Source: a virus. Taken from it: a stretch of 64,000 bases of DNA. Positions 1 to 57,001 of the stretch are shown here, in pieces (position 1 is the first letter of the stretch; each line of letters starts with the position of its first letter). Under the pieces are notes generated by a model. It saw only the letters and a list, made by a program, of their open reading frames with translations, did no database searches and was not told the DNA's origin. The position numbers and the translations under genes were made by a program. The DNA lies in the IMG/VR virus record IMGVR_UViG_3300045391_005044; one strand, written 5' to 3'.

Positions 1-348
1 CAGGGTGCCAACAATGAGGAGGACAATCATGCTGATCGTGGATGGAGGAGAAGGCGTCAGAAAGCTATCGACTCCATAGTGCATGACTACAAGTGCGAAG
101 CAGAGAAGTTCAACAAGGGTGTCTATTCTCACATCGACAGCATCATCAACCAGATGGGCGGTAAGGCGAAGTTGGGCTTCGACAACTACGCCACGGGAGC
201 CGCCAAGATGATTGAGGAATACGTAAAGGCGGGCAATACGGTAGAGATCCTTACGGTGTGCCAGCTGTACAACCAAGGCTTTATGCGGGAGGTGTTTGAG
301 ACGTTAAAGAAAAGCGAACAGGCGGAAAACATTCAGGATACTGAATAA
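1..348 (+). CDS. hypothetical protein, 5'-truncated by window edge
   Basis: The frame is open from nt 1 (QGANNEEDNHADRGW...) to TAA at 346-348. The tracked start at 79 is only an internal GTG. TAATG overlap with the next start at 348. Confidence 0.5.
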   Translation, partial: QGANNEEDNHADRGWRRRRQKAIDSIVHDYKCEAEKFNKGVYSHIDSIINQMGGKAKLGFDNYATGAAKMIEEYVKAGNTVEILTVCQLYNQGFMREVFETLKKSEQAENIQDTE

Positions 349-1292
349 TGTTCAAGCCCCACTACGGCATATGCAGCGAATGCAAAGAACAAAGGCTACT
401 GGTAGTTAAAAAATTACTCTGTAAAAAATGTAATCATGGAAGAAAAGAAATCAAAGACGATCCTAATTCCAAGCTGGAAGGACGTAGAGAAAGCAACAGG
501 AGAGGAAATATCGGAAAGCACAGGAATTCAAACGACGGAATGGTTGTCTCCAGAAGAGGCTGTAGAAAAGTATGGCAAGAACCAGATAAAAACATATCCT
601 CCAGCACTGAGCCACATTACTGGAGGAGTGGTTATAAAGCCTCGGTCTGGATCAGCGACCCAAGGCTGGGGCATTCTGGGACTGAACAAAAGAACTCCAT
701 CGGATTTCGAAGTAGCAATGGGAATGAGCATGGCAGCACAAAATCAAGACAGAACACTGGAAATAACCAGACCAGAAGGAGCAAAAAGCTGGATCATGGA
801 GCAGGAAATGGAGGAATGGAAAAATCTACAAAACAATCTCTTGGCCTCCAGCGCATCCCCTCTTCCCCCATGGATGCGAAAAGATTTTCTCCTCACCCCA
901 AAGGCTCTACGAAAAAAGAAGTTGCGCCAGGCAAAAAGAAAAAACCGTTACAGTACCGCAGGAAACCTACTGGCGAAGCGGAGGTCTTTAAGAAAATGTT
1001 TCAAGAGAGCCTACAAGCGCATCCAGAAGGTGTCCCATGTCGATGCTGTAAGCTCAGTTTGGGAACAGAACCCATGGCCCATTTCTTTTCCCATGTATTA
1101 CCAAAGAGCACATATCCCGAGTTCAGACTCAATCCCAGAAATATATGGATCGTCTGCTTCGAATGCCATGCAAGATGGGAGAACGGCGGTAGAAATAGCC
1201 CACAATTTAACGAAAAACGAAAGGCTGCCGATCAACTTCGGCAAGAGTCCAATTTACATAGATCCAAGCCAAGTATAAACACTCAAGAGTAA
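348..1292 (+). CDS. NinG/HNH-like zinc-finger nuclease-family protein
   Basis: N-terminal CxxC..CxxC ribbon (CSECKEQ...CKKCN). K/R/S-rich linker ending KKKKPLQYRRKPTGEAEVFKKMF. C-terminal Cys/His block PCRCC..HFFSHVLPKSTYPEFRLNPRNIWIVCFECHARWENG. This architecture resembles lambda NinG and phage HNH proteins. Confidence 0.5.
   Translation: MFKPHYGICSECKEQRLLVVKKLLCKKCNHGRKEIKDDPNSKLEGRRESNRRGNIGKHRNSNDGMVVSRRGCRKVWQEPDKNISSSTEPHYWRSGYKASVWISDPRLGHSGTEQKNSIGFRSSNGNEHGSTKSRQNTGNNQTRRSKKLDHGAGNGGMEKSTKQSLGLQRIPSSPMDAKRFSPHPKGSTKKEVAPGKKKKPLQYRRKPTGEAEVFKKMFQESLQAHPEGVPCRCCKLSLGTEPMAHFFSHVLPKSTYPEFRLNPRNIWIVCFECHARWENGGRNSPQFNEKRKAADQLRQESNLHRSKPSINTQE
436..1278 (+). other. fully overlapping +1-frame ORF (280 codons) inside the NinG/HNH-like gene; coding status unresolved
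   Basis: ATG-initiated and stop-free for 843 nt. Between ~440 and ~830 this frame has G-first codon periodicity and balanced composition (KTILIPSWKDVEKATGEEISE...), while the annotated frame is low-complexity there. Confidence 0.3.
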
Positions 1293-1343
1293 GGAAAGCC
1301 AATGCCTTTTTCAAGTAGGTCGTAACCCATAAACTCAATTTTT

Positions 1344-1571
1344 ATGAAGCAAATTGTTGCATCAATTTTGACGTTTATTTTGAATGCACTGCTCTTTTGC
1401 GTGTCATTCGTGCTATACCACTTCGAGCCCGTCAGGGATCGCGTTAAGGGTATCATGAACCACGTATCTGGCCAGGTGAGCAAAATTGTATACAGCGCGA
1501 AAGCGTGGATGTATGCAGAGAGAGCTCGCCTGCGCGTGTATATGTGGGATAGTCCACTTTCTATTCAATAA
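1344..1571 (+). CDS. small membrane protein, hypothetical
   Basis: 75-aa ORF with an N-terminal hydrophobic helix (IVASILTFILNALLFCVSFVLY). Followed directly by a strong terminator. Confidence 0.4.
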   Translation: MKQIVASILTFILNALLFCVSFVLYHFEPVRDRVKGIMNHVSGQVSKIVYSAKAWMYAERARLRVYMWDSPLSIQ

Positions 1572-1591
1572 TAAACATGTCGAAAATCCGG

Positions 1592-1626
1592 ACCATCCCC
1601 AGAATATTTTGGGGATGGTTTATTTA
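1592..1626 (+). terminator. rho-independent terminator
   Basis: 10-bp stem ACCATCCCCA / TGGGGATGGT with an 8-nt loop, followed by TTATTT. Lies 20 nt after the stop at 1571. Confidence 0.55.
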
Positions 1627-1627
1627 C

Positions 1628-1755
1628 GGGGAGATGGCGGAATGGTAGACGCGTCGATTCACTTAGGTGTGATAGGCAGGAGAAGCTTAATCGCAAAAGA
1701 GCAATACTTGATCAAGTAACTCAATCCTATGCAGGTTCGAATCCTGCTCTTCCCG
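1628..1755 (+). tRNA. tRNA-like gene, 128 nt, Leu-type D arm, non-canonical or insert-containing central region
   Basis: Acceptor GGGGAGA/TCTTCCC (7 bp, one G-U). D arm TGGCGGAATGGTAGACGCG as in bacterial tRNA-Leu. T arm GCAGG-TTCGAAT-CCTGC. 77 nt lie between the D and T arms. CTTAGGT (possible UAG anticodon loop) is present, but I could not form a canonical 5-bp stem by hand. Confidence 0.5.
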
Positions 1756-1770
1756 CTTAAAACAAACAGC

Positions 1771-2346
1771 ATGAAAATTTACAGTCCACTCACCCTTCGC
1801 CTCGCCGACAACAACCAACTGATGGTTGAGGCTTACACCATGCCTGAACCAATTAACAACGCCAATATGTACAATGGATTAGAACGCATACGGCATGAAA
1901 GCGAATACAACAAAGTATGGAAAAAATGGCTCGCCTCCAAAATAGAGCTGCCGGTAAATGAGGGGAGTAAAGATGAATTTGAAAAGGTAGCCAAAAAATA
2001 CATCATCAATGAATTAAGCAAGCAGGCAAAAGAACCTACTGAATCCGGAATCATATTCTTTTTGTTAAAAGGCATCGACGTCTCCGAACTGGCTGACCGC
2101 ATCGATGTTAGAGATGGATGTTCAGAAGGCGTCAACTGCACAGCACACAAAACAGGTAAATGCATCGGCACAATTGTGAAAAGAGCTCACCTCCTACCCG
2201 AGAAGAAAGAGGGGCAGGATCAATATAGCCTCTGGAATGATTTGTTGCAGCTCTTGTACGATAATGATTTTGAACAGCACACCTATTCTGATAAAACTAT
2301 TATTGAGTTGTTAAGAGCAAAATTTACTATAACCAAAAACCCATGA
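1771..2346 (+). CDS. hypothetical protein, paralog of 13229..13747
   Basis: The tracked ORF start at 1729 lies in the T arm of the tRNA-like gene, so the first plausible ATG is 1771 (MKIYSPLTLRLADNNQLMV). Shares blocks with 13229..13747: RLADNQLMV, SKIELPxxEGSK, SELADRI, LPEKxEGQD. Confidence 0.6.
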   Translation: MKIYSPLTLRLADNNQLMVEAYTMPEPINNANMYNGLERIRHESEYNKVWKKWLASKIELPVNEGSKDEFEKVAKKYIINELSKQAKEPTESGIIFFLLKGIDVSELADRIDVRDGCSEGVNCTAHKTGKCIGTIVKRAHLLPEKKEGQDQYSLWNDLLQLLYDNDFEQHTYSDKTIIELLRAKFTITKNP

Positions 2347-2840
2347 ACGACATATTCTGGAAAGAGCAAACCATCGACGAAGCGAAGACCTTCCTGCAAG
2401 AAAAGGCTTCCAAAGGGGTTATGTGTCCATGCTGCCATCGGTACACGAAAATTTACGAGCGCAAACTCACCAGCTCTATGGCATATGGACTCATAAGGTT
2501 GTACCTGTACGCAGAAAAAACGAATAAAATAGGTCATTACCTACATATAGAAAACATCTTCAAGGACATGGATATTACGTCTTCCATTCGGGGAGATTTT
2601 CCAAAATTGAGATTCTGGGGACTTATAGAGCCTTCTCCGGTGGAGGAAGGCCCTCATGTCCAGAATGGGGAATACCGGATAACTGAGCGCGGATTTCTAT
2701 TTGTTATGGGTTCGATTTCTGTTTACAATAGCGTATGGATCTACAACAACAAGATGATCGATAAAAGCAAAAATATGGTAAACATACACCAGGCCCTCAA
2801 AAATAAGTTCAACTACCAAGAACTCATGTCCTATGCCTAA
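2343..2840 (+). CDS. hypothetical protein with CxCC-type zinc motif, possible DNA-binding protein
   Basis: ATGA overlap with the upstream stop. Motif GVMCPCCHRYTKIYERKL followed by a helix-rich region. No family recognised. Confidence 0.5.
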   Translation: MNDIFWKEQTIDEAKTFLQEKASKGVMCPCCHRYTKIYERKLTSSMAYGLIRLYLYAEKTNKIGHYLHIENIFKDMDITSSIRGDFPKLRFWGLIEPSPVEEGPHVQNGEYRITERGFLFVMGSISVYNSVWIYNNKMIDKSKNMVNIHQALKNKFNYQELMSYA

Positions 2841-2909
2841 ATTCGTAATAGACTTCATGCTGTTCCGCGATCGGAAGGATCCGTACTCAATACTTGCTGG
2901 TGTAATTGG

Positions 2910-3458
2910 ATGGGCCACCTTAGTTCTTATTGCCTCCGTGTTTTCAACATTTTACTACCTATGGTGATAACGATAAATACTGACGCCTCGTTCAGCAACA
3001 AGCACCGCATAGGAGCCTTCGCCTGCTGGGTGGTGAGCAACAGATTCAAAATAAAGTTCGGCGGCATGCTCAAAAAGAAATGCGAGTCCCCAACTCACGC
3101 AGAGTGCATGGCCATCATCAATGCCCTGCATATGGTATTCCTCAATGACATGACCGGAGTGAAAATGATCATCGTCAATACCGACTCCATGAATTCCAAG
3201 CACATATTTGAAAACGACACACAGGCTATAAAGAGATACCGACTGAAGTCCTATTCTCAGCAGTTCTATGGCAGGTTCGTAAAGATGAAGATGGATGCTT
3301 TCCGGCATAACCAGAAGGTAGAGTTCCAATTCAGACACGTGAAGGCCCACCAGGATACCGACACCCCGCGCACATACATCAACGACTGGTGTGATTGCGA
3401 GGCAAAGAGGCACATGGGGCATGCTCTTGATCAATTTAAAGAAAAACAACCAACATGA
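2910..3458 (+). CDS. RNase H-like protein (RNase HI fold)
   Basis: DEDD-type pattern: ITINTDASF, ECMAIINAL, IVNTDS, HVKAHQDTD..NDWCDCEAK. An alternative start is at 2961 (MVITINTDAS). Confidence 0.55.
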   Translation: MGHLSSYCLRVFNILLPMVITINTDASFSNKHRIGAFACWVVSNRFKIKFGGMLKKKCESPTHAECMAIINALHMVFLNDMTGVKMIIVNTDSMNSKHIFENDTQAIKRYRLKSYSQQFYGRFVKMKMDAFRHNQKVEFQFRHVKAHQDTDTPRTYINDWCDCEAKRHMGHALDQFKEKQPT

Positions 3459-5070: not shown

Positions 5071-5142
5071 GCCTCGGTAGCTCAGTTGGTAGAGCGCCGG
5101 ACTGAAGATCCGGTAGCGGTGGTTCGAATCCATCCCGAGGCA
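5071..5142 (+). tRNA. tRNA-Phe (anticodon GAA)
   Basis: Canonical cloverleaf. Acceptor GCCTCGG/CCGAGGC. D arm GCTC-AGTTGGTA-GAGC. Anticodon arm CCGGA-CTGAAGA-TCCGG. T arm GGTGG-TTCGAAT-CCATC. Discriminator A. No encoded CCA. Confidence 0.85.
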
Positions 5143-5147
5143 CAAAT

Positions 5148-5222
5148 GCCAATGTAAGCTCAAATGGTAGAGCTCGCCCCGAACTGGTGTGCGGGTTATG
5201 GGTTCGATTCCTGTTATTGGCG
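5148..5222 (+). tRNA. tRNA-like gene, 75 nt, irregular anticodon arm (isotype not assignable by eye)
   Basis: Acceptor GCCAATG/TATTGGC. D arm AGCT-CAAATGGTAG-AGCT. T arm ATGGG-TTCGATT-CCTGT. The central CCCG-AACTGGTGTG-CGGG gives only a 4-bp stem with a 10-nt loop. Candidate anticodons GGU or UGG need mismatches or a 1-nt deletion. Confidence 0.5.
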
Positions 5223-8998: not shown

Positions 8999-10021
8999 AT
9001 GTGGATTATACCAAATACTCACCCGCTGTACTCAGCCTTTGCCCAGGAATGCGTGGACTCGAAAGAGGCGTTGAAAGAGCATTTACCCGACTTGGTTGGA
9101 AGCAGCCAACAACCGCAGCTTATGTGGAAATCGAAGCCTTCATCATCTGGAACCTGGTTAAGCAGATGGAGCAGGGTGTACTGGATCCCGCACCTATTCA
9201 CTCGAACATTAAAACCTTCCCTTGGGAAATCCTTCGAGGAAAAATTGACTTCATATTTGGCGGATACCCCTGCCAGCCGTTTAGTGTCGCCGGTAAATTG
9301 GGAGGAACAGAAGACCCAAGGCATCTATGGCCTTACATCAAATCAGGAATCGAAACAATTAAACCTGTGGGATGCTTTTTTGAGAACGTCAGAAACCACC
9401 TTAACATCGGATACGAGCAAGTCAAAACAGAACTGGAAGAGCTTGGTTACCGAGTTGAGCAGGGAATCTATTCAGCGGAAGAAGTTGGCGCGCCTCACAA
9501 GAGAGACAGGTTGTTTATTCTCGCAATCTTGGCCGACACCTACACTAATGATTCAGGAAACGAGCTTGGAAATATTTCAAGCGAGAGCAAAGAGATTAAA
9601 AGAGAGGAACAACGGACGGAACGGAACCAAGCGCTCTGGCAACGGGGCAGGAATGAATCTAGGAGTTGCAGTAAACAAATGGAGCACTCCAGTTTCGCGG
9701 GATTACAGGAGTCCGGATATAGTAACGTCGGGGAATTTTCAGAGGAAGAAAGAAAAGGGCTGGACGATAGACCTAAACAGTCAGGTGATGAACTGGCCCA
9801 CTCCGGTTGCATCGGACGATGGCCGGAAAGTCACGAAAGCATCGAACCAAAATTCATTGATAAAGGCTACGTGTGGCCCTCTAAACCAGGACAAGAACAG
9901 TTCGGGTGGGAATATCCTCGTACTGAATCCCGCGTGGGTTTTACAGTTGATGGGTACAACTTTAGAGAAGACCTTTTGCGAATGGCAGGGAATGGAGTTG
10001 TTGAACAAACCGCAGAATTAG
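8999..10021 (+). other. fully overlapping +1-frame ORF (340 codons) in the C5-MTase gene; WPTP-repeat region; coding status unresolved
   Basis: ATG at 8999 interlocks with GTG at 9001 (ATGTGG). Stop-free for 1023 nt. nt 9530-9958 read SWPTPT..STPVSRDYRSPD..NWPTPVASDDG..LNPAWVLQLMG. Confidence 0.3.
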
Positions 10022-10065
10022 CATTTTTAGATTTATTGAAAAAACATTTATGGACATCCAATTAA
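9001..10065 (+). CDS. DNA (cytosine-5)-methyltransferase
   Basis: Motif I LSLCPGMRGLERG. Motif IV FGGYPCQPFSVAGK. Motif VI FFENVRN. Motif VIII GAPHKRDRLFILA. Motif X LLRMAGNGVVEQ. Needs the GTG start at 9001, because the first in-frame ATG would delete motif I. Confidence 0.85.
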   Translation: MDYTKYSPAVLSLCPGMRGLERGVERAFTRLGWKQPTTAAYVEIEAFIIWNLVKQMEQGVLDPAPIHSNIKTFPWEILRGKIDFIFGGYPCQPFSVAGKLGGTEDPRHLWPYIKSGIETIKPVGCFFENVRNHLNIGYEQVKTELEELGYRVEQGIYSAEEVGAPHKRDRLFILAILADTYTNDSGNELGNISSESKEIKREEQRTERNQALWQRGRNESRSCSKQMEHSSFAGLQESGYSNVGEFSEEERKGLDDRPKQSGDELAHSGCIGRWPESHESIEPKFIDKGYVWPSKPGQEQFGWEYPRTESRVGFTVDGYNFREDLLRMAGNGVVEQTAELAFLDLLKKHLWTSN

Positions 10066-11858
10066 TTGACGACAGGACCGTGAGGTTCCAAAAAAAGCTG
10101 TGGGCGGAGTCGGAGATCATCCTTGCCAAGTGCTTTGGCTTTGAGATAGACATTGACAGCGGGCGCATGCATGCCAACCTGGCCATGACCTCCAAAAAGT
10201 CTCTCTTCGAATTTATCCGCATAGCCTTCAAAAATTTCAGCGAGTCTCCCACAGAGACGGAGCGCCGGAACATGTTCTTTGGAGAAGTGCAGGGATGTTA
10301 CGATCAGATCGATTATCAGGCCGATCTCCAGATAAAGCCTCGTCTTCCGTATTACGACAGTTTTTACGATCACCAGAAGCAGGGATTGCGGGAAGTGTTT
10401 TACAAAAAACACAACTTTTTGGCCTACGAAATGGGTCTTGGAAAATCGTTGACAAGTGCTTCCATATCCAGAGTATTCCAAATACCACGAACAGTAATCG
10501 TGTGCCCGGCCGCCGTAAAGTGGAACTGGTATCGGGACCTGGTAAAGTTTGGGTATAACGAGCTTTACTTTACTATCCTTGACTCATCGAAGTACAAGAC
10601 CGTTCGTGCCTTCAACGAGCGCTTTGTGATCATCAACTACGACATGTTGCCGAACTTTGAAAAGGAGCTCTGTAAACTTCCGGTAGGCCACTTCATCTTG
10701 GATGAGGCTCACTATCTGAAGAACCACAATTCGGCCCGCTACAAGAACCTGAAGAAGGTAATCGACCAGCACACCGACCCGAGGATTACCTTTCTCTCTG
10801 GCACGCCAATCACCAACCGGGTGAATGACGTATTCGCCTACCTGAAACTCATCGGCCACGAGCTGGGGCAGTCCCATAAAAAGTTTCTTGACGAATACAC
10901 CATAAAGACCACCAACAGAGGAGGGGAGCGCGTAACTGGCGGAAGGAATCTGCAGGACCTGCACATAAAGCTCTCCAACTTCATGATCCGCAAGACCAAG
11001 GAGGAATGCCTGGATCTGCCTGGAAAGATCTTCATGTCCTACCGGTTTGAGATGGATGACTACCGCGATGAGTACAACAAGATCATCGAGGAGATGTCAA
11101 AAAACAAGGACATATCCTCCCTGACGGGCAACATACACTCTTTAAACATCATAACCTCCAAAGCCAAGATACATGGCATAAAGGAGCTTGCAGAGACGAT
11201 TCTGGAGACTGGAAAGAAAGTTGTCATCTTTGGTAGCTACAAGGAGCCTCTGAACGAGCTGGAGGCCTATTTTGGTAAGAAGTGCGTAAAGATCGATGGA
11301 TCTGTAGATTCCTGGATGCGCGATCAGCTGGTGCAGCGCTTCCATAACGATCCGGAGGTTACCGTGTTCCTTGGGAACATGAAAGCCGCAGGCGTAGGTA
11401 TAAACCTCACCAATGCATCGGATGTCATATACCTGAACTTCCCTCTGAGCCCTGCAGACCTGTACCAAAGCATGGACCGCCTTGACAGGATCGGGCAGGT
11501 ATCGTGTGTGAATGTACACTACACCTTCTGCGAGGACAGCATCGATGACGATATCTATGATCTGATCGTGGACAAGGAGAAGGACATTGTAGCGCTGATC
11601 GACCAGGGCAGGGAGGTTATGTTCCGGGAGAATATTGTGGAGACGCTGATGAAAAAGATTTTCAACAGGGGAAGTGAGGAGCAAATAATTGGTGAAATCG
11701 TTACACCGGAGTGGGAAAATGTTCCCGAAACGGTGAAGGCTACTATCTCTGTAGAGCCTTCTGTTGTTCCGAAAGAAGAGAACATTTTTGCCCAAAAGCT
11801 TCGGGAATCTGAATCTAAAGGCACATCAATTCAATCCCTAACCCCACCAGATCTGTAA
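10050..11858 (+). CDS. SNF2-family helicase / DNA-dependent ATPase
   Basis: LAYEMGLGKSLTS (motif I), ILDEAHYLKN (II), LSGTPITNR (III), and a C-terminal helicase domain with KAAGVGINLT and QSMDRLDRIGQ (VI). Confidence 0.85.
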   Translation: MDIQLIDDRTVRFQKKLWAESEIILAKCFGFEIDIDSGRMHANLAMTSKKSLFEFIRIAFKNFSESPTETERRNMFFGEVQGCYDQIDYQADLQIKPRLPYYDSFYDHQKQGLREVFYKKHNFLAYEMGLGKSLTSASISRVFQIPRTVIVCPAAVKWNWYRDLVKFGYNELYFTILDSSKYKTVRAFNERFVIINYDMLPNFEKELCKLPVGHFILDEAHYLKNHNSARYKNLKKVIDQHTDPRITFLSGTPITNRVNDVFAYLKLIGHELGQSHKKFLDEYTIKTTNRGGERVTGGRNLQDLHIKLSNFMIRKTKEECLDLPGKIFMSYRFEMDDYRDEYNKIIEEMSKNKDISSLTGNIHSLNIITSKAKIHGIKELAETILETGKKVVIFGSYKEPLNELEAYFGKKCVKIDGSVDSWMRDQLVQRFHNDPEVTVFLGNMKAAGVGINLTNASDVIYLNFPLSPADLYQSMDRLDRIGQVSCVNVHYTFCEDSIDDDIYDLIVDKEKDIVALIDQGREVMFRENIVETLMKKIFNRGSEEQIIGEIVTPEWENVPETVKATISVEPSVVPKEENIFAQKLRESESKGTSIQSLTPPDL

Positions 11859-19304: not shown

Positions 19305-19462
19305 AAAGAAGACTTCTAAAAACAAAATGGCTCTGGATAAAGCGCCACGAATGGCACGGAGGCAATATTTACACCAGATATACTCACGCAATATATCGCT
19401 CATACGAATTCTTTTACCCTTGGGGTATAACCAGAGATTTTGTAGTAAAAAATGTAATTTAA
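19301..19462 (+). CDS. small (53 aa) basic aromatic-rich protein, not in ORF track
   Basis: ATGA overlap with the primase-helicase stop (19301-19304). Ends 4 nt before the next ATG. Sequence MKRRLLKTKWLWIKRHEWHGGNIY... Confidence 0.35.
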   Translation: MKRRLLKTKWLWIKRHEWHGGNIYTRYTHAIYRSYEFFYPWGITRDFVVKNVI

Positions 19463-19466
19463 GCCC

Positions 19467-19934
19467 ATGAAAAAACAACAAGACCTGTTCAGTACTGAAG
19501 AGTACAAAAAGACCTTTGTGAAAAACAAAAAAGTGAAGGAGGAGAGCATCCAGCTGCAGGTGTGCGACTACCTACGAAAGAACTACCCGAATGTAATTTT
19601 CACATGCGATCTGGCTTCCGGGTTGAAGCTTCCGATATGGATCGCTGCCAAGCACAAAAAGATGCGATCGTCGAGGGGGCTGCCGGACCTGTTTATTGCT
19701 CACGTCAGGTTAAAACTAAAATCAATGGGAGACAGTGAACATGAACATGTAACCGGCCTATTCATAGAGCTCAAAAAAGATTCGGCCAGGCTCAAAAACG
19801 GTGGTATCGCCAAGTCGGATCACCATGACGAGCAGGAGGCTATATTGTCCAGACTACGGCAGCAGGGATACAGAGCAGAATTTGCCTGTGGGTACGAAGA
19901 GGCCGTGAAGCTCATCGATGAGTACCTATCATAA
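19467..19934 (+). CDS. VRR-NUC-type PD-(D/E)xK nuclease
   Basis: QLQVCDYLRKNYP..., GLPDLFIAH and LFIELKK form the D...ExK pattern typical of the VRR-NUC domain. Confidence 0.6.
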   Translation: MKKQQDLFSTEEYKKTFVKNKKVKEESIQLQVCDYLRKNYPNVIFTCDLASGLKLPIWIAAKHKKMRSSRGLPDLFIAHVRLKLKSMGDSEHEHVTGLFIELKKDSARLKNGGIAKSDHHDEQEAILSRLRQQGYRAEFACGYEEAVKLIDEYLS

Positions 19935-20704: not shown

Positions 20705-20867
20705 TAATGATAAGCTGTCGAGGGCCCTGAAGCAGAAGATCGTAAAATTCAAGGCTGAAGAGCTCGCTGATCTTTTCAGTGCCGTGCAAGAAATTAGAGC
20801 AGACATAAATAAAGTAAAAATCACCAAAAAACAACAGAAAAATGAATCAACAGAGACAGTACACTGA
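20670..20867 (+). CDS. hypothetical small protein (start uncertain: 20610 or 20670)
   Basis: The only ORF covering the 20705-20841 gap. Overlaps both neighbours. Confidence 0.3.
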   Translation: MTPEASNLEYHNNDKLSRALKQKIVKFKAEELADLFSAVQEIRADINKVKITKKQQKNESTETVH

Positions 20868-21561
20868 AGTGACAGGTGGATCCAACAATGAGCGTTGGGA
20901 GCCACAAAAAAGCAACATGCCTATCGATCCTAATAATCCTCCCATGCTGGAAGGATATTACAAAAGGCAGAGGGAGCAAAATGGAGCGAATGGACCATTC
21001 CTGGTACACGAAATCGCAACAGTAAACCCAGACGGCAGTCTTGGAGAAGATCTGGACCTGTCGGGCGGAATGGCATTGGACAGCACAATGGAGCAGATCA
21101 GCATTGGATCATTTGTATGCATCCAGTATCTTGGCAAAAAGCCTTCAAAAACTCCAGGCCGTTCCTACCACAACTGGAAAGTGTTCAAGGACGACAATGC
21201 GATCCCATACCAGAAACTTGCCGGCATGGGGCAATCTCAAGCATCAACACAGGCTCCAGTTAATAAGCCGCAGCAGGGCAATACGCAAGGCAATTTTCAA
21301 CAAAACTCCGGGCAAAATCAAAACTGGAACAACAACCCCAATCACCAGGCAAATCAGCGCCAGCAGGTGAACAATCCTCAACAAAACACTGGCAATTTCA
21401 ATCAGAATTACCAGGGCCAAAACTTCAACCAGACTGGCCAAAATTTTGGCAACGGGCAAAATACCGGATACCAAAATACTGGAGCCCGACAGGGAATGAA
21501 CCAGGGCCAACAAAACAATGGGGTGCACGGCGATCCTTTTCAGGACGATTTGCCCTTTTGA
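20842..21561 (+). CDS. SSB-like protein with Q/N/G-rich linker and acidic DDLPF tip
   Basis: The C-terminal ...DPFQDDLPF matches the bacterial SSB tail (DDDIPF type). It is preceded by a ~110-aa Q/N/G-rich disordered linker. The N-terminal ~120 aa could be an OB fold, but I did not recognise it directly. Confidence 0.45.
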   Translation: MNQQRQYTEVTGGSNNERWEPQKSNMPIDPNNPPMLEGYYKRQREQNGANGPFLVHEIATVNPDGSLGEDLDLSGGMALDSTMEQISIGSFVCIQYLGKKPSKTPGRSYHNWKVFKDDNAIPYQKLAGMGQSQASTQAPVNKPQQGNTQGNFQQNSGQNQNWNNNPNHQANQRQQVNNPQQNTGNFNQNYQGQNFNQTGQNFGNGQNTGYQNTGARQGMNQGQQNNGVHGDPFQDDLPF

Positions 21562-21602: not shown

Positions 21603-21711
21603 GGAAGTGTATCTCAGCTGGTTAGAGGGTCCGCATCAGGAAACTGAAAAGAGCGGTAAGCGGCCGAATGAAAACAGGCTACATGCGCGGGTTCGACTCC
21701 CGCCACTTCCA
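21603..21711 (+). tRNA. tRNA-like gene, 109 nt, class-I type arms with a ~35-nt central insert
   Basis: Acceptor GGAAGTG/CACTTCC. D arm TCTC-AGCTGGTTA-GAGG. T arm GCGGG-TTCGACT-CCCGC. The centre has CCGC...GCGG enclosing a TCAG-GAAA-CTGA tetraloop hairpin. No canonical anticodon arm found by hand. Confidence 0.45.
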
Positions 21712-54007: not shown

Positions 54008-54633
54008 TATTTACGGTCCTTTTTTTGTTGGTGATACTTATCGATCGCTTTTGTAGAAATCTCTTCTCCCTTCTTGTTCTCGGTGATCCCAAATCCTTCT
54101 TCCAGCTGCTTTATGAGCATAGGGAATGCTTCAGATATTGTCTTTGTGCTGCTCACGTACTGACTGCGGGCGGTATAGTCCGTTTGCATGTTTCCTTCCT
54201 TGTCGGCGTACAAAAATGCGCTATCCACATCTATCTCAATCAGCTTCAAGTAATTTTTCATGATAGACTGCACGCCTCTTTTTGCAAGCATTCTTGCATT
54301 GGGGGAGTACGACTCCATTTTCTTTATAGCCTCTTTCACGGTGTCGTGAATCTCGAAGCTGGCATATCTTGCCTTGGTTTCCTTATCGTCTTTGAAAACT
54401 ATTGAGGCAGCGGTGGTGTACCGCATGCTTTGTGGAATGTCCGGATCTATGGGTGATGATGGATTACCGATCAGCCAGGCGAAGTGAAGTTCTTTGTCGG
54501 TAAGTATTTTTAGTTCCGGCTCCTCCTGCAGTTCCGGATACATTTTTTTGAGAGACTTTCCATTCCTTGGACCAAATAGAGTGATCTCTTCAATGTTGAA
54601 GACTATTTTATCGGTATTGGTTTTTTCTTCCAT
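54007..54633 (-). CDS. hypothetical protein between terminase and portal
   Basis: 208-aa ORF overlapping both neighbours. Confidence 0.5.
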   Translation of the reverse strand: MEEKTNTDKIVFNIEEITLFGPRNGKSLKKMYPELQEEPELKILTDKELHFAWLIGNPSSPIDPDIPQSMRYTTAASIVFKDDKETKARYASFEIHDTVKEAIKKMESYSPNARMLAKRGVQSIMKNYLKLIEIDVDSAFLYADKEGNMQTDYTARSQYVSSTKTISEAFPMLIKQLEEGFGITENKKGEEISTKAIDKYHQQKKDRK

Positions 54634-57001
54634 TTGGTCTTTCTATTACCGGAATTCTCACCAGGTTGTAATCTTTGTCGTATCCCATCTTGAATTTTAC
54701 CTCCGGGCGCTTTTTCGCTTCTTCTACGACATTTACAGGCACAAGTTCAGGGAAGCATAGTTCTGCACAAATATATGAAAAAACGAGAGCGAACAGAACG
54801 TCATCCTTAAAATACTTCTTGTTCATCGGCCCCCAGATCTCATTACCCCTGTCGGAGATCGTACACACGAAAGTTTTGAACTGTTCGAAGATCACCTCAA
54901 AATAGAAGTTATCACCGAATGCCGCTGTCATCTCGTACATTCGGTTTATGATCATAGTGTTCCTGGTGCCCTTATTGTCTATGCCTATACCCTCGTTCTT
55001 TGCGCTCTGGTTTTGAAAAGAGAACGGCAGCTGGTAGTTGAGCACAAACTCATTTCCGTAGCCTTTGGCGTTCTTATACTGGGTATATGATGTTCCCCGG
55101 TTGCTCTCCACGAGATCCTTCACGCCGCGCTTTGTTTCCTCTACGTCATAGTATATTCCAAGCAGGAGTGTCTGCAGGAAAACTTCCGGGTAGTCTTTTG
55201 TCCGGTAGTTGAGTATAGCCGCTGGTGCTTTGTAGTACTTGTCCCAGATGCAGGAGGCCATGTTTGACAAGCCGGTATCTGTGTCGATCGGATCCGTGCC
55301 CTGGAAGTACCTGTTCTTCCATCCGTGCTTGGGGTGCATGAATATTGTCACCGATGCACGGGCATCAATATCTTCCGTTGGCACGAAGTTGGCCCCGATT
55401 ATTTTGTAGGGAACATCGGAATTTTCATCTGCCGGCGCACCGTAATCGTATATCGGTTCAAAGTATCCGGACTGGTGCAATTCAAAATTTTTGTTAAATT
55501 TTGCTTCATTGATTCTTTTGAGAGCGTTTTCGATGTAATCATCATCAAAAAGGGTCTTCGCGCGGGTGCGGAACACGTCCGACAGGGATGACGGATAGGA
55601 TTGGTGGAATTCGGTAATGTGTCTCTTCGCATCCGGATCCTGCTTGTCTTCTCCTTTGGCGTACGCTACCCTTTTCTCGTTGTCAAAGTCTTCCTGGCGG
55701 ATACCTGGTCTGCAGGTCCAATCGAAGAATATCGGTATGATGCTGGATGAGTAGTCTCCTTTATCCCAGGCTGTTTTTATAGCCATGAATTCGGTCTCAA
55801 AGGCTTTACCTCCTTTTTCCATCTCACCACCGGTACCCCAGAACCATAGCCGGCGTTTTACTTCCAGTTTTTTTGTTTTTGGGTTGTACCAGCGCATTGT
55901 TGGCCTGGCGTTTCCGATCATGATACCAAGGATGTTGATGTTACCAGCCTCATCGATCTTCACCTTTTGTGGTGCACCACCGGCAATGGCTGTCCTTTTG
56001 GGTGCCACGACCATGATTTTAGAGCCTACCCCGTCTTTTGTGCCTTTTTCTGGCTTGTTGCCGAGCTTGAAGAGGTTGTCACGTTCATTGAGGACGTTGG
56101 GCTTCATCCACCACGGCAGCTCGGAGAATACGAATTTGAGCTTATCCTCGAAGATCTCCTGCGCTTTTTCGACGTCTTCTGTGATGAACTTCATGAAGTG
56201 ATTGGTCTTGAACACTGCATCGCGTACGTCGAGGGCCATGAGGGTTGTTGTCGCTGCGATCTGGCGTCCTTTGGCAATACCGCAGGAGTATCCGCAGTCA
56301 TCCAGGTAGGCCATAACCTCGTGCACCGGTCGGGCTATGTACTTTATGCGACCCGATTCATCATCGCCTTCTTTGTAGTACACGTATTTGTTGAGGAAGT
56401 ACAGGGCGTTTTCGTCACAGCGCAGTAGTTCCTGCAGCTTGAACTCTTCTCTTTCATCTTCGTCTTCAAAGTCAGTGTAGCTGCTTTTTTCTGACAGCCA
56501 TGTGTATGCTTGCTGGCAGTACAGTGCGAACTTCCGGAAGTTGGTTTTATTCTTGAAGCCGTAGTTGTTGATGGAGTTTACCCACTCCACAAAAGCCGGT
56601 TCATGTTCTGTTGTGGACTTCGGCGCCCAGTCTTCTCTGGTTATTGGCTCCGATCGTCCTTCAAAAACGAGTCCGTGTAGCTTTCGTCGCTCTTCCAGCT
56701 CTTCATCGGTGAGGACTTCAACTTTCGATCCGCCGTGATCACCGATAACGATGTCTACTCTTTTGTCGATCTCCCGGTTTTTGTCTGTGGCAAATGTGAG
56801 CTTGTGCTCGTTGATCTTGTCTTCTTTTAGAGCCTTCTCTGCCGGGGCAGTTTCTCTCTCCTGGATATAGCCTCTCTGTTTGAGTAGGGCGAGGTTATCA
56901 GGGCCGATCTCTACCTGCTGTAGATAGAGGTCGTAGAGGAAGTCGAGGTGATTCTCCCGGATGATCTTACTGCCTTCTCTGCCGTTGTATCTTTTTTCCA
57001 T
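54608..57001 (-). CDS. terL: terminase large subunit
   Basis: Walker A-like GIAKGRQIAATTT, Walker B-like KVKIDEAGN, large size, adjacent to the portal. The start is moved to ATG 57001 (MEKRYNGREG), 2 nt after the upstream stop. The tracked start at 57070 overlaps the upstream gene by 65 nt. Confidence 0.7.
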   Translation of the reverse strand: MEKRYNGREGSKIIRENHLDFLYDLYLQQVEIGPDNLALLKQRGYIQERETAPAEKALKEDKINEHKLTFATDKNREIDKRVDIVIGDHGGSKVEVLTDEELEERRKLHGLVFEGRSEPITREDWAPKSTTEHEPAFVEWVNSINNYGFKNKTNFRKFALYCQQAYTWLSEKSSYTDFEDEDEREEFKLQELLRCDENALYFLNKYVYYKEGDDESGRIKYIARPVHEVMAYLDDCGYSCGIAKGRQIAATTTLMALDVRDAVFKTNHFMKFITEDVEKAQEIFEDKLKFVFSELPWWMKPNVLNERDNLFKLGNKPEKGTKDGVGSKIMVVAPKRTAIAGGAPQKVKIDEAGNINILGIMIGNARPTMRWYNPKTKKLEVKRRLWFWGTGGEMEKGGKAFETEFMAIKTAWDKGDYSSSIIPIFFDWTCRPGIRQEDFDNEKRVAYAKGEDKQDPDAKRHITEFHQSYPSSLSDVFRTRAKTLFDDDYIENALKRINEAKFNKNFELHQSGYFEPIYDYGAPADENSDVPYKIIGANFVPTEDIDARASVTIFMHPKHGWKNRYFQGTDPIDTDTGLSNMASCIWDKYYKAPAAILNYRTKDYPEVFLQTLLLGIYYDVEETKRGVKDLVESNRGTSYTQYKNAKGYGNEFVLNYQLPFSFQNQSAKNEGIGIDNKGTRNTMIINRMYEMTAAFGDNFYFEVIFEQFKTFVCTISDRGNEIWGPMNKKYFKDDVLFALVFSYICAELCFPELVPVNVVEEAKKRPEVKFKMGYDKDYNLVRIPVIERPNGRKNQYR

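Follow-up and report, generated by a model that had tools for sequence, protein, structure and literature searches.

The 64,000-nucleotide stretch of DNA analyzed here (the window) comes from the virus record IMGVR_UViG_3300045391_005044 of IMG/VR, and near its beginning lies an open reading frame (ORF) for a zinc ribbon, a long linker and an HNH-like nuclease domain (frame 0; 348..1292, plus strand, 314 amino acids). A second ORF, in the +1 frame of this gene (436..1278, plus strand, 280 amino acids), is also open and covers 89% of its host. Comparison with related loci suggests that two same-strand overlapping genes probably share this DNA, the +1 gene being started internally. As the best explanation, we take the expanded linker of this zinc-ribbon/HNH nuclease gene to hold a conserved nested +1 gene, a variant of a recently described kind.

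The +1 frame is stop-free from 406 to 1278 (290 codons), with the nearest upstream +1 stop, a TAG, at 403-405; the +2 frame of the same gene contains 19 stops. A sequence-only reading of the window had pointed out the two nested ORFs, which are present as it claimed, and had called the +1 frame open across the whole gene, which holds from 406 onwards and fails in the first 58 nt, where a +1 stop is found. It had proposed dinucleotide-preserving shuffles as a check: none of 20,000 contained, in any frame, a stop-free run of 290 codons, and the length of the second-best frame was always at or below 140 codons. Permutation of the frame-0 codons gave P < 2e-4 for +1 openness, and shuffling of synonymous frame-0 codons gave P = 0.0004 for the length of the +1 ORF in the window, with P = 0.0000-0.0072 in 7/7 long-linker sequences (the window and six independent relatives described below). 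The alternative-frame ORF is thus longer than the frame-0 protein and its codon usage predict, as is looked for in an overprinted pair. The reverse was also found, frame 0 being stop-free in the linker beyond what the +1 codons predict (P < 2e-4, 0.018, 0.032 and 0.014, the value for the window being P < 2e-4). Both frames are kept open. Since composition-matched shuffles never reach the observed +1 length, the outcome that the sequence-only reading had named as speaking against its proposal was not seen.

That reading had also suggested that a purine-rich, T-poor composition makes stop-free frames easier. If the open +1 frame were only a by-product of such a composition and of a linker lacking hydrophobic codons, there would be no second protein. 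T does make up only 19% of the sequence, and few +1 stops are expected after synonymous shuffling (0.5-2.2 in the HNH core and 1.7 in the window linker, P = 0.07). For the full ORF, however, all three kinds of shuffle reject composition as the cause, in the window and in the six independent relatives, and composition leaves the +1-specific conservation, the coding-like +1 codon score and the relative L015 unexplained. We consider it extremely improbable.

The codon score was obtained from a codon-usage log-likelihood model trained on 45 genes of the window, which picked the true frame in 97% of 90-nt segments. The model prefers +1 in every segment from 378 to 770, in agreement with the earlier impression that the center of the gene looks coding in +1. 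In their own frame, normal genes score 0.31±0.09 bits per codon; their +1 frames score -0.63±0.17 (maximum -0.29). The window linker scored 0.00 in frame 0 and 0.16 in +1, the window HNH part -0.24 and 0.03, respectively, and over linker and HNH part together the +1 scores of all seven sequences ranged from -0.19 to +0.19 with frame 0 at about 0. Intermediate scores in both frames are what dual coding is expected to produce. Upstream of its ATG, the +1 frame looks off-frame in most relatives.

The relatives, given here by locus number, differ in linker length. Two are short (L009 and L010, 137-148 amino acids) and L008 (227 amino acids) carries a duplicated zinc ribbon; in these three, MFKPHxGIC...C..CN is followed by a KKEKK linker of ~20 amino acids and then by (E/K)PTGE..F and a Cys/His core. 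The short-linker relatives have 7-13 stops in +1 and show no excess-length signal in synonymous shuffles. The window gene forms a long-linker clade (linkers of 70-190 amino acids) with L001, L003, L004, L013, L014, L015 and L016, and all seven of these relatives keep the +1 ORF. It usually begins at an ATG directly downstream of the zinc ribbon and closes no more than ~25 nt away from the frame-0 stop, the exceptions being L003, where it ends 65 nt early, and L001, where it restarts after a duplicated segment. Read at the DNA level, the +1 ATG lies at an equivalent place in L004, L001 and L003, within frame-0 codons for N-(H/N/D)-(G/E). Linker sequences differ between subclades. In L015, the +1 ORF (69..548) lies directly 3' of AT-rich intergenic DNA and has no zinc ribbon upstream; the nuclease frame of this locus is without an ATG and contains a TGA exactly at the conserved glycine of SLGTEP, which a decaying nuclease gene, an error or recoding of TGA could explain. 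Only one relative was present in IMG/VR, a megablast search with positions 1-3000 of the window against the INPHARED phages gave no match, and profile and word-index searches with A3 revealed no further members.

The L001 locus (10001-10834) looks composite. A short-type N-terminal part (zinc ribbon, ~30-amino-acid linker and KPIQYRKKRTGEGEVFQKILEERGPTSQISG) is followed by a second CKIGN segment, a long linker and the HNH part, which suggests recombination or invasion between paralogous nuclease genes.

In the public gene calls (JGI, Logan), the window locus, L004, L013, L014 and L016 are each represented by the +1 ORF, called a hypothetical protein, with the HNH ORF left out. Gene callers picked +1 in six lineages (the window's phage and five others), and L001 shows the reverse. 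The frame-0 product of the window is absent from the public gene-call collection, where the +1 ORF alone is recorded. Annotation pipelines forbid long same-strand overlaps. The window gene, linker included, is identical in three independent assemblies (JGI, Logan), so its linker is not an assembly error; L005-L007 are identical to this linker. Homopolymer A-runs do exist in the sequence and are all that was found in favor of assembly or sequencing indels that mimic frame switches; such errors would not leave both frames open, and the same architecture recurs in seven diverged relatives. The probability of this explanation is negligible.

Selection in the linkers was assessed by aligning pairs of loci as DNA, placing the observed differences at random and scoring amino-acid similarity in each frame. 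The linkers of L013, L004 and L001 share 50-73% nucleotide identity, and in all three pairs +1 similarity lay 3-5 standard deviations above the random-substitution null: 217 versus 123±18 for L013-L001, 93 versus 11±18 for L013-L004 and 119 versus 47±18 for L004-L001 (85 versus 29±18 in a repeat run). Frames 0 and +2 stayed at the null for both L004 pairs and were weakly above it for L013-L001 (P = 0.03-0.04). For L004 and L001, alignment of the +1 proteins gave z = 10.6 versus 1.5 for frame 0, all indels are multiples of three, and a 22-residue +1 block (QLQEMKKCKEDPDYFFRKYGTV versus ELEELKKCRENPEYFLQKYCVV) contains 14 non-synonymous and 0 synonymous frame-0 codon changes. In the L014-L016 pair, both frames were above the null. 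As judged from these alignments, the +1 amino-acid sequence is conserved in the linkers of these relatives, and the pattern points to purifying selection on +1 there, the signature looked for in overprinted pairs. When the linker DNA of the window was aligned to that of its relatives, frames 0 and +1 gave null scores; a +2 outlier in the comparison with L003 was set aside, its alignment gaps not being multiples of three.

This constraint bears on the idea that the linker is a relic, that is, foreign coding DNA (for example a terminase fragment) inserted out of frame and no longer translated in +1. The differences between subclades would fit such an origin, and so would a motif of ~20 amino acids resembling the N-terminus of the terminase large subunit in the +1 linkers of L001, L004 and L013. 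A relic is nevertheless predicted to collect +1 stops and to lose conservation, and yet +1 is stop-free in every lineage and under constraint in the same three loci at their level of divergence, which makes this origin quite unlikely. The terminase-like motif matches phrog_5989 in the N-terminal modules of L001 and L004 (E = 1.6e-4 and 3e-4), and in L001, L004 and L013 it resembles a segment of the terminase large subunit of the window, KLQELLRCDENALYFLNKY. The 797-amino-acid protein encoded at 54608-57001 on the minus strand of the window matches the same terminase large subunit family, phrog_5989 (E = 4.7e-8). The motif is a lead and not a function, and a role with the nuclease or in DNA packaging would be a guess.

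Frame 0 represents a genuine gene. In the zinc ribbon and the HNH part, its third codon positions differ most between relatives, indicating that frame 0 is selected there, and comparison of the relatives finds this frame conserved in both flanks. The N-terminus follows the pattern MFKPHxGIC...C..C, and CRCC...FSH...C..CH is invariant in four relatives. Four more HNH PHROGs in addition to phrog_144 match frame 0 at E = 0.008-0.37; Pfam HNH (PF01844) reaches E = 0.045 and 14.3 bits, below its 21.4-bit cut-off, and a PDB profile search found no relative. The frame-0 product would thus be a member of the HNH endonucleases at the PHROG level only. The zinc-ribbon N-terminus and HNH-like C-terminus put forward in the sequence-only reading are borne out by the conserved N-terminus and by phrog_144, and the center that it described as a low-complexity string is indeed hydrophilic and rich in R/S/N/G/K. 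Its comparison with NinG did not hold, as the resemblance lies in domain order only and Pfam NinG (PF05766) gave no match to frame 0 at E <= 1.

The linker is still read in frame 0, as it is stop-free there beyond the expectation given the +1 codons, and only openness and hydrophilic character are preserved. Synonymous change is suppressed at the junction (936..989). At KKxKPLQYRRKPTGEAEVF, the codon is identical in 75-78% of aligned identical amino acids versus 45-56% elsewhere in the gene, and this stretch coincides with the most conserved +1 peptide, RYSTAGNLLAKRRSLRK. The coordinates of these and the other features are collected in the table.

Table. Features of the nuclease gene and of the nested +1 ORF, in positions of the window
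Feature	Position	Strand	Basis or remark
Frame-0 gene: zinc ribbon, long linker and HNH-like nuclease (314 amino acids)	348..1292	+	ORF; homolog P0001, E = 2e-42
Frame-0 zinc ribbon, Cys9, Cys12, Cys25, Cys28; MFKPHYGICSEC...CKKC	372..431	+	N-terminus conserved in all relatives including the short ones; substitution pattern of frame 0
Expanded linker: R/S/N/G/K-rich low complexity in frame 0, coding-like +1 part	435..935	+	~20 amino acids in short relatives
Nested +1 ORF (280 amino acids), public protein P0002, JGI "hypothetical protein"	436..1278	+	Length significance; homologous +1 ORF in seven relatives
+1 ATG, from frame-0 codons AAT-CAT-GGA (N-H-G) just 3' of the zinc ribbon	436..438	+	A-rich, G-poor context
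+1 peptide SPEEAVEKYG, similar to DPDYFFRKYG / NPEYFLQKYC, the terminase-like motif of relatives	547..576	+	By eye; not significant for the window
+1 motif LPPWMRKDF; in relatives LPPWMKQN, FPNWMYKN, FPNWFRR, WWIKQA	862..888	+	Alignment
+1 basic helical segment RKKKLRQAKRKNRYSTAGNLLAKRRSLRKCFKRAYKRIQK	910..1029	+	Most conserved +1 block, all eight sequences
A AAA AAG heptamer in +1 register, candidate for a -1 slip into frame 0	912..918	+	A second heptamer, A AAA AAC, at 939-945
Junction KKKKPLQYRRKPTGEAEVF (frame 0), synonymous change suppressed	936..989	+	Codon identity among aligned identical amino acids
Frame-0 HNH-like nuclease domain, CRCC...FSHVLPK..YPEFRL..RNIWIVCFECHARWE	1038..1259	+	phrog_144, E = 2.1e-7, amino acids 231-304

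We propose that the ancestral frame-0 gene encoded a small phage nuclease made of a zinc ribbon, a short basic linker and an HNH-like domain, and that the linker grew to 70-190 residues in one clade. The frame-0 linker would tether the two domains and need only to stay open and hydrophilic, a tolerance that may have permitted a second protein in +1. Translation of +1 most likely starts independently, at the ATG that the conserved N-(H/N/D)-(G/E) codons form directly behind the zinc ribbon and in a host system that would make no use of Shine-Dalgarno sequences, and would continue roughly as far as the nuclease gene does. A variable N-terminal module, the conserved motif (L/F)P(P/N)W(M/F) and a helix of strongly basic character would make up the functional part of the +1 protein, whose tail over the nuclease core looks unstructured. 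Only 5/46 genes of this phage have a Shine-Dalgarno-like core. A makes up 44% of the upstream regions, and ATG 436 lies in a context resembling these A-rich leaders. Given this start context, the arrangement in L015 and the preference of gene callers for +1, internal initiation is the simplest reading, and we infer both that it occurs and that both proteins are produced. The string GTAAAAAATGTAAT found at 420-435, just upstream of ATG 436, also occurs at ~19445-19460, upstream of a gene start at 19467.

The best-looking coding frame of the locus goes 0/+1/0, and both junctions in the window have A-runs and slippery heptamers close by, as would be expected if a single protein were made through two programmed frameshifts, with the zinc ribbon in frame 0, a middle domain in +1 and the HNH part in frame 0 again. 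Neither frame would then need to be open beyond its own segment, yet both are. The heptamer positions are unconserved: heptamers lie near the distal junction in the window, L003 and L015, and none does in L004 or L001, so that the conserved slippery site looked for in programmed frameshifting is missing from these sequences. Short family members exist without the middle domain, L015 has the +1 ORF alone behind intergenic DNA, and the analogous chimera of the methylase gene of the window (see below) scores below a single frame. We know of no precedent for two shifts in opposite directions within one gene, which we also count against this explanation. Altogether it is highly unlikely. The sequence-only reading had left the choice between frameshifting and overprinting; overprinting is the part that stands, and the 0/+1/0 frameshift does not fit the openness of both frames, the unconserved heptamers, the lone +1 ORF of L015 and the methylase chimera.

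A frameshift could also act in addition to internal initiation. Ribosomes would start at ATG 436 in +1 and some of them would slip -1 at the A AAA AAG heptamer, giving a fusion of the +1 module with the HNH domain beside the other products. In the window, this dnaX-type heptamer is in the correct register and precedes RRKPTGE by 45 nt; the homologous position in L003 and L015 is occupied by T TTA AAA(AAG), and the HNH frame of L015 lacks an ATG of its own. On the other hand, the junctions of L004 and L001 are without a nearby site of this type, a lysine-rich, A-rich sequence should contain such heptamers by chance, and the nuclease frame of L015 also has a stop and may be decaying. We therefore hold such a fusion to be unlikely. 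A frameshift-suppressor transfer RNA (tRNA) was considered for the tRNA-like gene at 1628-1755 and dropped, the ARAGORN intron model being a tRNA-Met with a normal 7-nt loop. Rfam matches this gene (128 nt) and another at 21603-21711 (109 nt) as tRNAs containing long internal insertions. ARAGORN missed both by default; its intron mode at low threshold called tRNA-Met(cat), with an insert of 43 nt, and tRNA-Thr(cgt), with one of 18 nt, each having a long extra arm. A weak tRNA-Phe-like copy (5148-5222) follows the tRNA-Phe at 5071-5143.

For two overlapping genes, the window itself offers evidence at the level of a motif. A profile of the relatives' +1 linkers matched the LPPWMRKDF...KALRKKK region of the window with P = 0.0015 versus shuffles (frame 0, P = 0.076). 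AlphaFold2 with a six-sequence alignment predicted helices with confidence only at +1 residues 114-204 (predicted local distance difference test, pLDDT, 66-93), which include the PPWM motif and the basic segment. A match of the +1 protein to DUF7857 (E = 0.025-0.06) was taken as chance.

Several observations weigh against a second gene. The linker of the window has no diverged close relative, so that selection on +1 is seen in sister lineages and only weakly, at the motif level, in the window. The clade is small, with eight loci in 3-4 subclades. Openness of +1 over the HNH core alone gave P = 0.03-0.47 per sequence, and combining these values by hand with Fisher's method gave ~0.03, weakly significant and obtained from non-independent sequences. 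The mean pLDDT of the +1 protein was 41 from the single sequence and 51 with the six-sequence alignment, and its C-terminal 80 residues look disordered in the AlphaFold2 models. An exhaustive HMMER search of 1.84 billion representative proteins found +1 homologs only within the locus family and nothing for residues 1-142 of the window +1 linker, and searches of Pfam, PHROGs and NCBIfam with the +1 ORF gave nothing significant.

Full-length alternative frames are found in 2/46 long ORFs of the window: in the nuclease gene and in a gene for a C5-methylase (8999..10065). The sequence-only reading had noted an analogous case in the latter, and two full-length overlapping frames are confirmed there, A at 9001..10065 and B at 8999..10021 (340 amino acids). 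Frame A matches PF00145 (E = 5e-28) and, over its whole length, a Synechococcus phage methylase; frame B carries WPTP..D motifs and matches phrog_1008 (E = 2e-10). The same pair of frames is present in Synechococcus phage Yong-M2-251 (OM868082.1), as an annotated coding sequence at 966..2105 of locus L012 and an unannotated ORF at 973..2088, and the frame-B proteins of the two phages align at E = 3e-20. A 0/+1/0 chimera had been suggested as a check in the earlier reading; run on the methylase as A/B/A, it lowered the PF00145 score to 89 bits, versus 98.8 bits for frame A alone. The methylase gene, like the nuclease gene, thus points to overlapping genes and not to a frameshift chimera. The screen of the window with synonymous shuffles also gave +2 open runs of 133 codons in 10050-11858 and 108 codons in 20842-21561 (each P = 0.003, 300 shuffles), which may be chance, the screen comprising 92 tests.

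To our knowledge, tailed phages rarely have long same-strand overlapping genes. The closest known case appears to be the ShiLan domain, described with related out-of-frame HNH insertion elements in mycobacteriophage DNA methylases (Arsenault, Gosselin and Gogarten 2025, PMC11855218). ShiLan is read through in the host frame, stop-free, as a poorly structured loop, has no splicing motifs, and contains a hidden ORF with its own internal start (PMC11855218). This ORF encodes a recognizable HNH homing endonuclease, stays within the insertion and has its stop in the final 4 nt; the host gene is one for a methylase (PMC11855218). The nuclease gene of the window is alike in having an extra segment inside a phage enzyme gene that is transparent in the host frame and hides a second frame, frame 0 being open through a 165-codon segment that the short relatives lack. 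An Rfam scan of the window found no intron family, and a search of the flanks gave no direct repeats indicative of an insertion. The eight loci and the short relatives include both short and long forms, and L001 resembles a short-type N-terminus joined to a long-type copy. The differences from ShiLan are that the host gene here is itself an HNH-like nuclease, that the +1 cargo matches no nuclease family in Pfam, PHROGs or NCBIfam, nor any other family, and that the hidden ORF continues through the catalytic domain of the host to the end of the gene.

In lambda Rz/Rz1, a complete +1 gene lies inside another on the same strand, and both are translated and work together. Rz1, a short lipoprotein, has a signal sequence, and its gene lies within that of a structured protein. 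The nested pair described here is likewise a +1 embedded one; it is unrelated to Rz/Rz1 and differs in its 280 codons, its location mainly in a disordered linker and the absence of a lipobox. Overprinting is also known from small viruses such as phiX174, where a new frame arises on an older gene, one of the two products is often disordered and both are of atypical composition (review PMC8227390). The tailed-phage contig studied here, in contrast, is of ~72 kb and without tight size limits, and the overlap seems to have been enabled by expansion of a linker rather than by genome compression. With phage HNH and lambda NinG/Rap-like nucleases, the frame-0 product shares a zinc ribbon, a basic linker and a Cys/His-rich C-terminal domain; it differs in its sub-threshold Pfam HNH score, the lack of a NinG match and the lack of a PDB relative by sequence. 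We know of no nested ORF reported in members of these groups.

If two genes do share this DNA, public catalogues miss one protein of each pair at this locus. The eight loci, together with short relatives that lack the overlap, offer a clean comparative case of a disordered linker as the place for a second gene. It is a tentative idea, which we think has some though a minor chance of being right, that the linker and its +1 ORF belong to a wider class of "translationally transparent" cassettes in tolerant loops and linkers of phage nuclease and methylase genes. Such cassettes would be stop-free in the host frame, would need no splicing and would make their own protein from another frame; the methylase would be a second instance, conserved as far as a Synechococcus phage. 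The cargo here would be a basic protein and not an endonuclease, and the terminase-like motif of some lineages would hint at a link between the HNH nuclease and DNA packaging. Taken with the methylase gene and ShiLan, the nuclease gene suggests that hidden frames in phage DNA-enzyme genes may be common enough to warrant a systematic screen.

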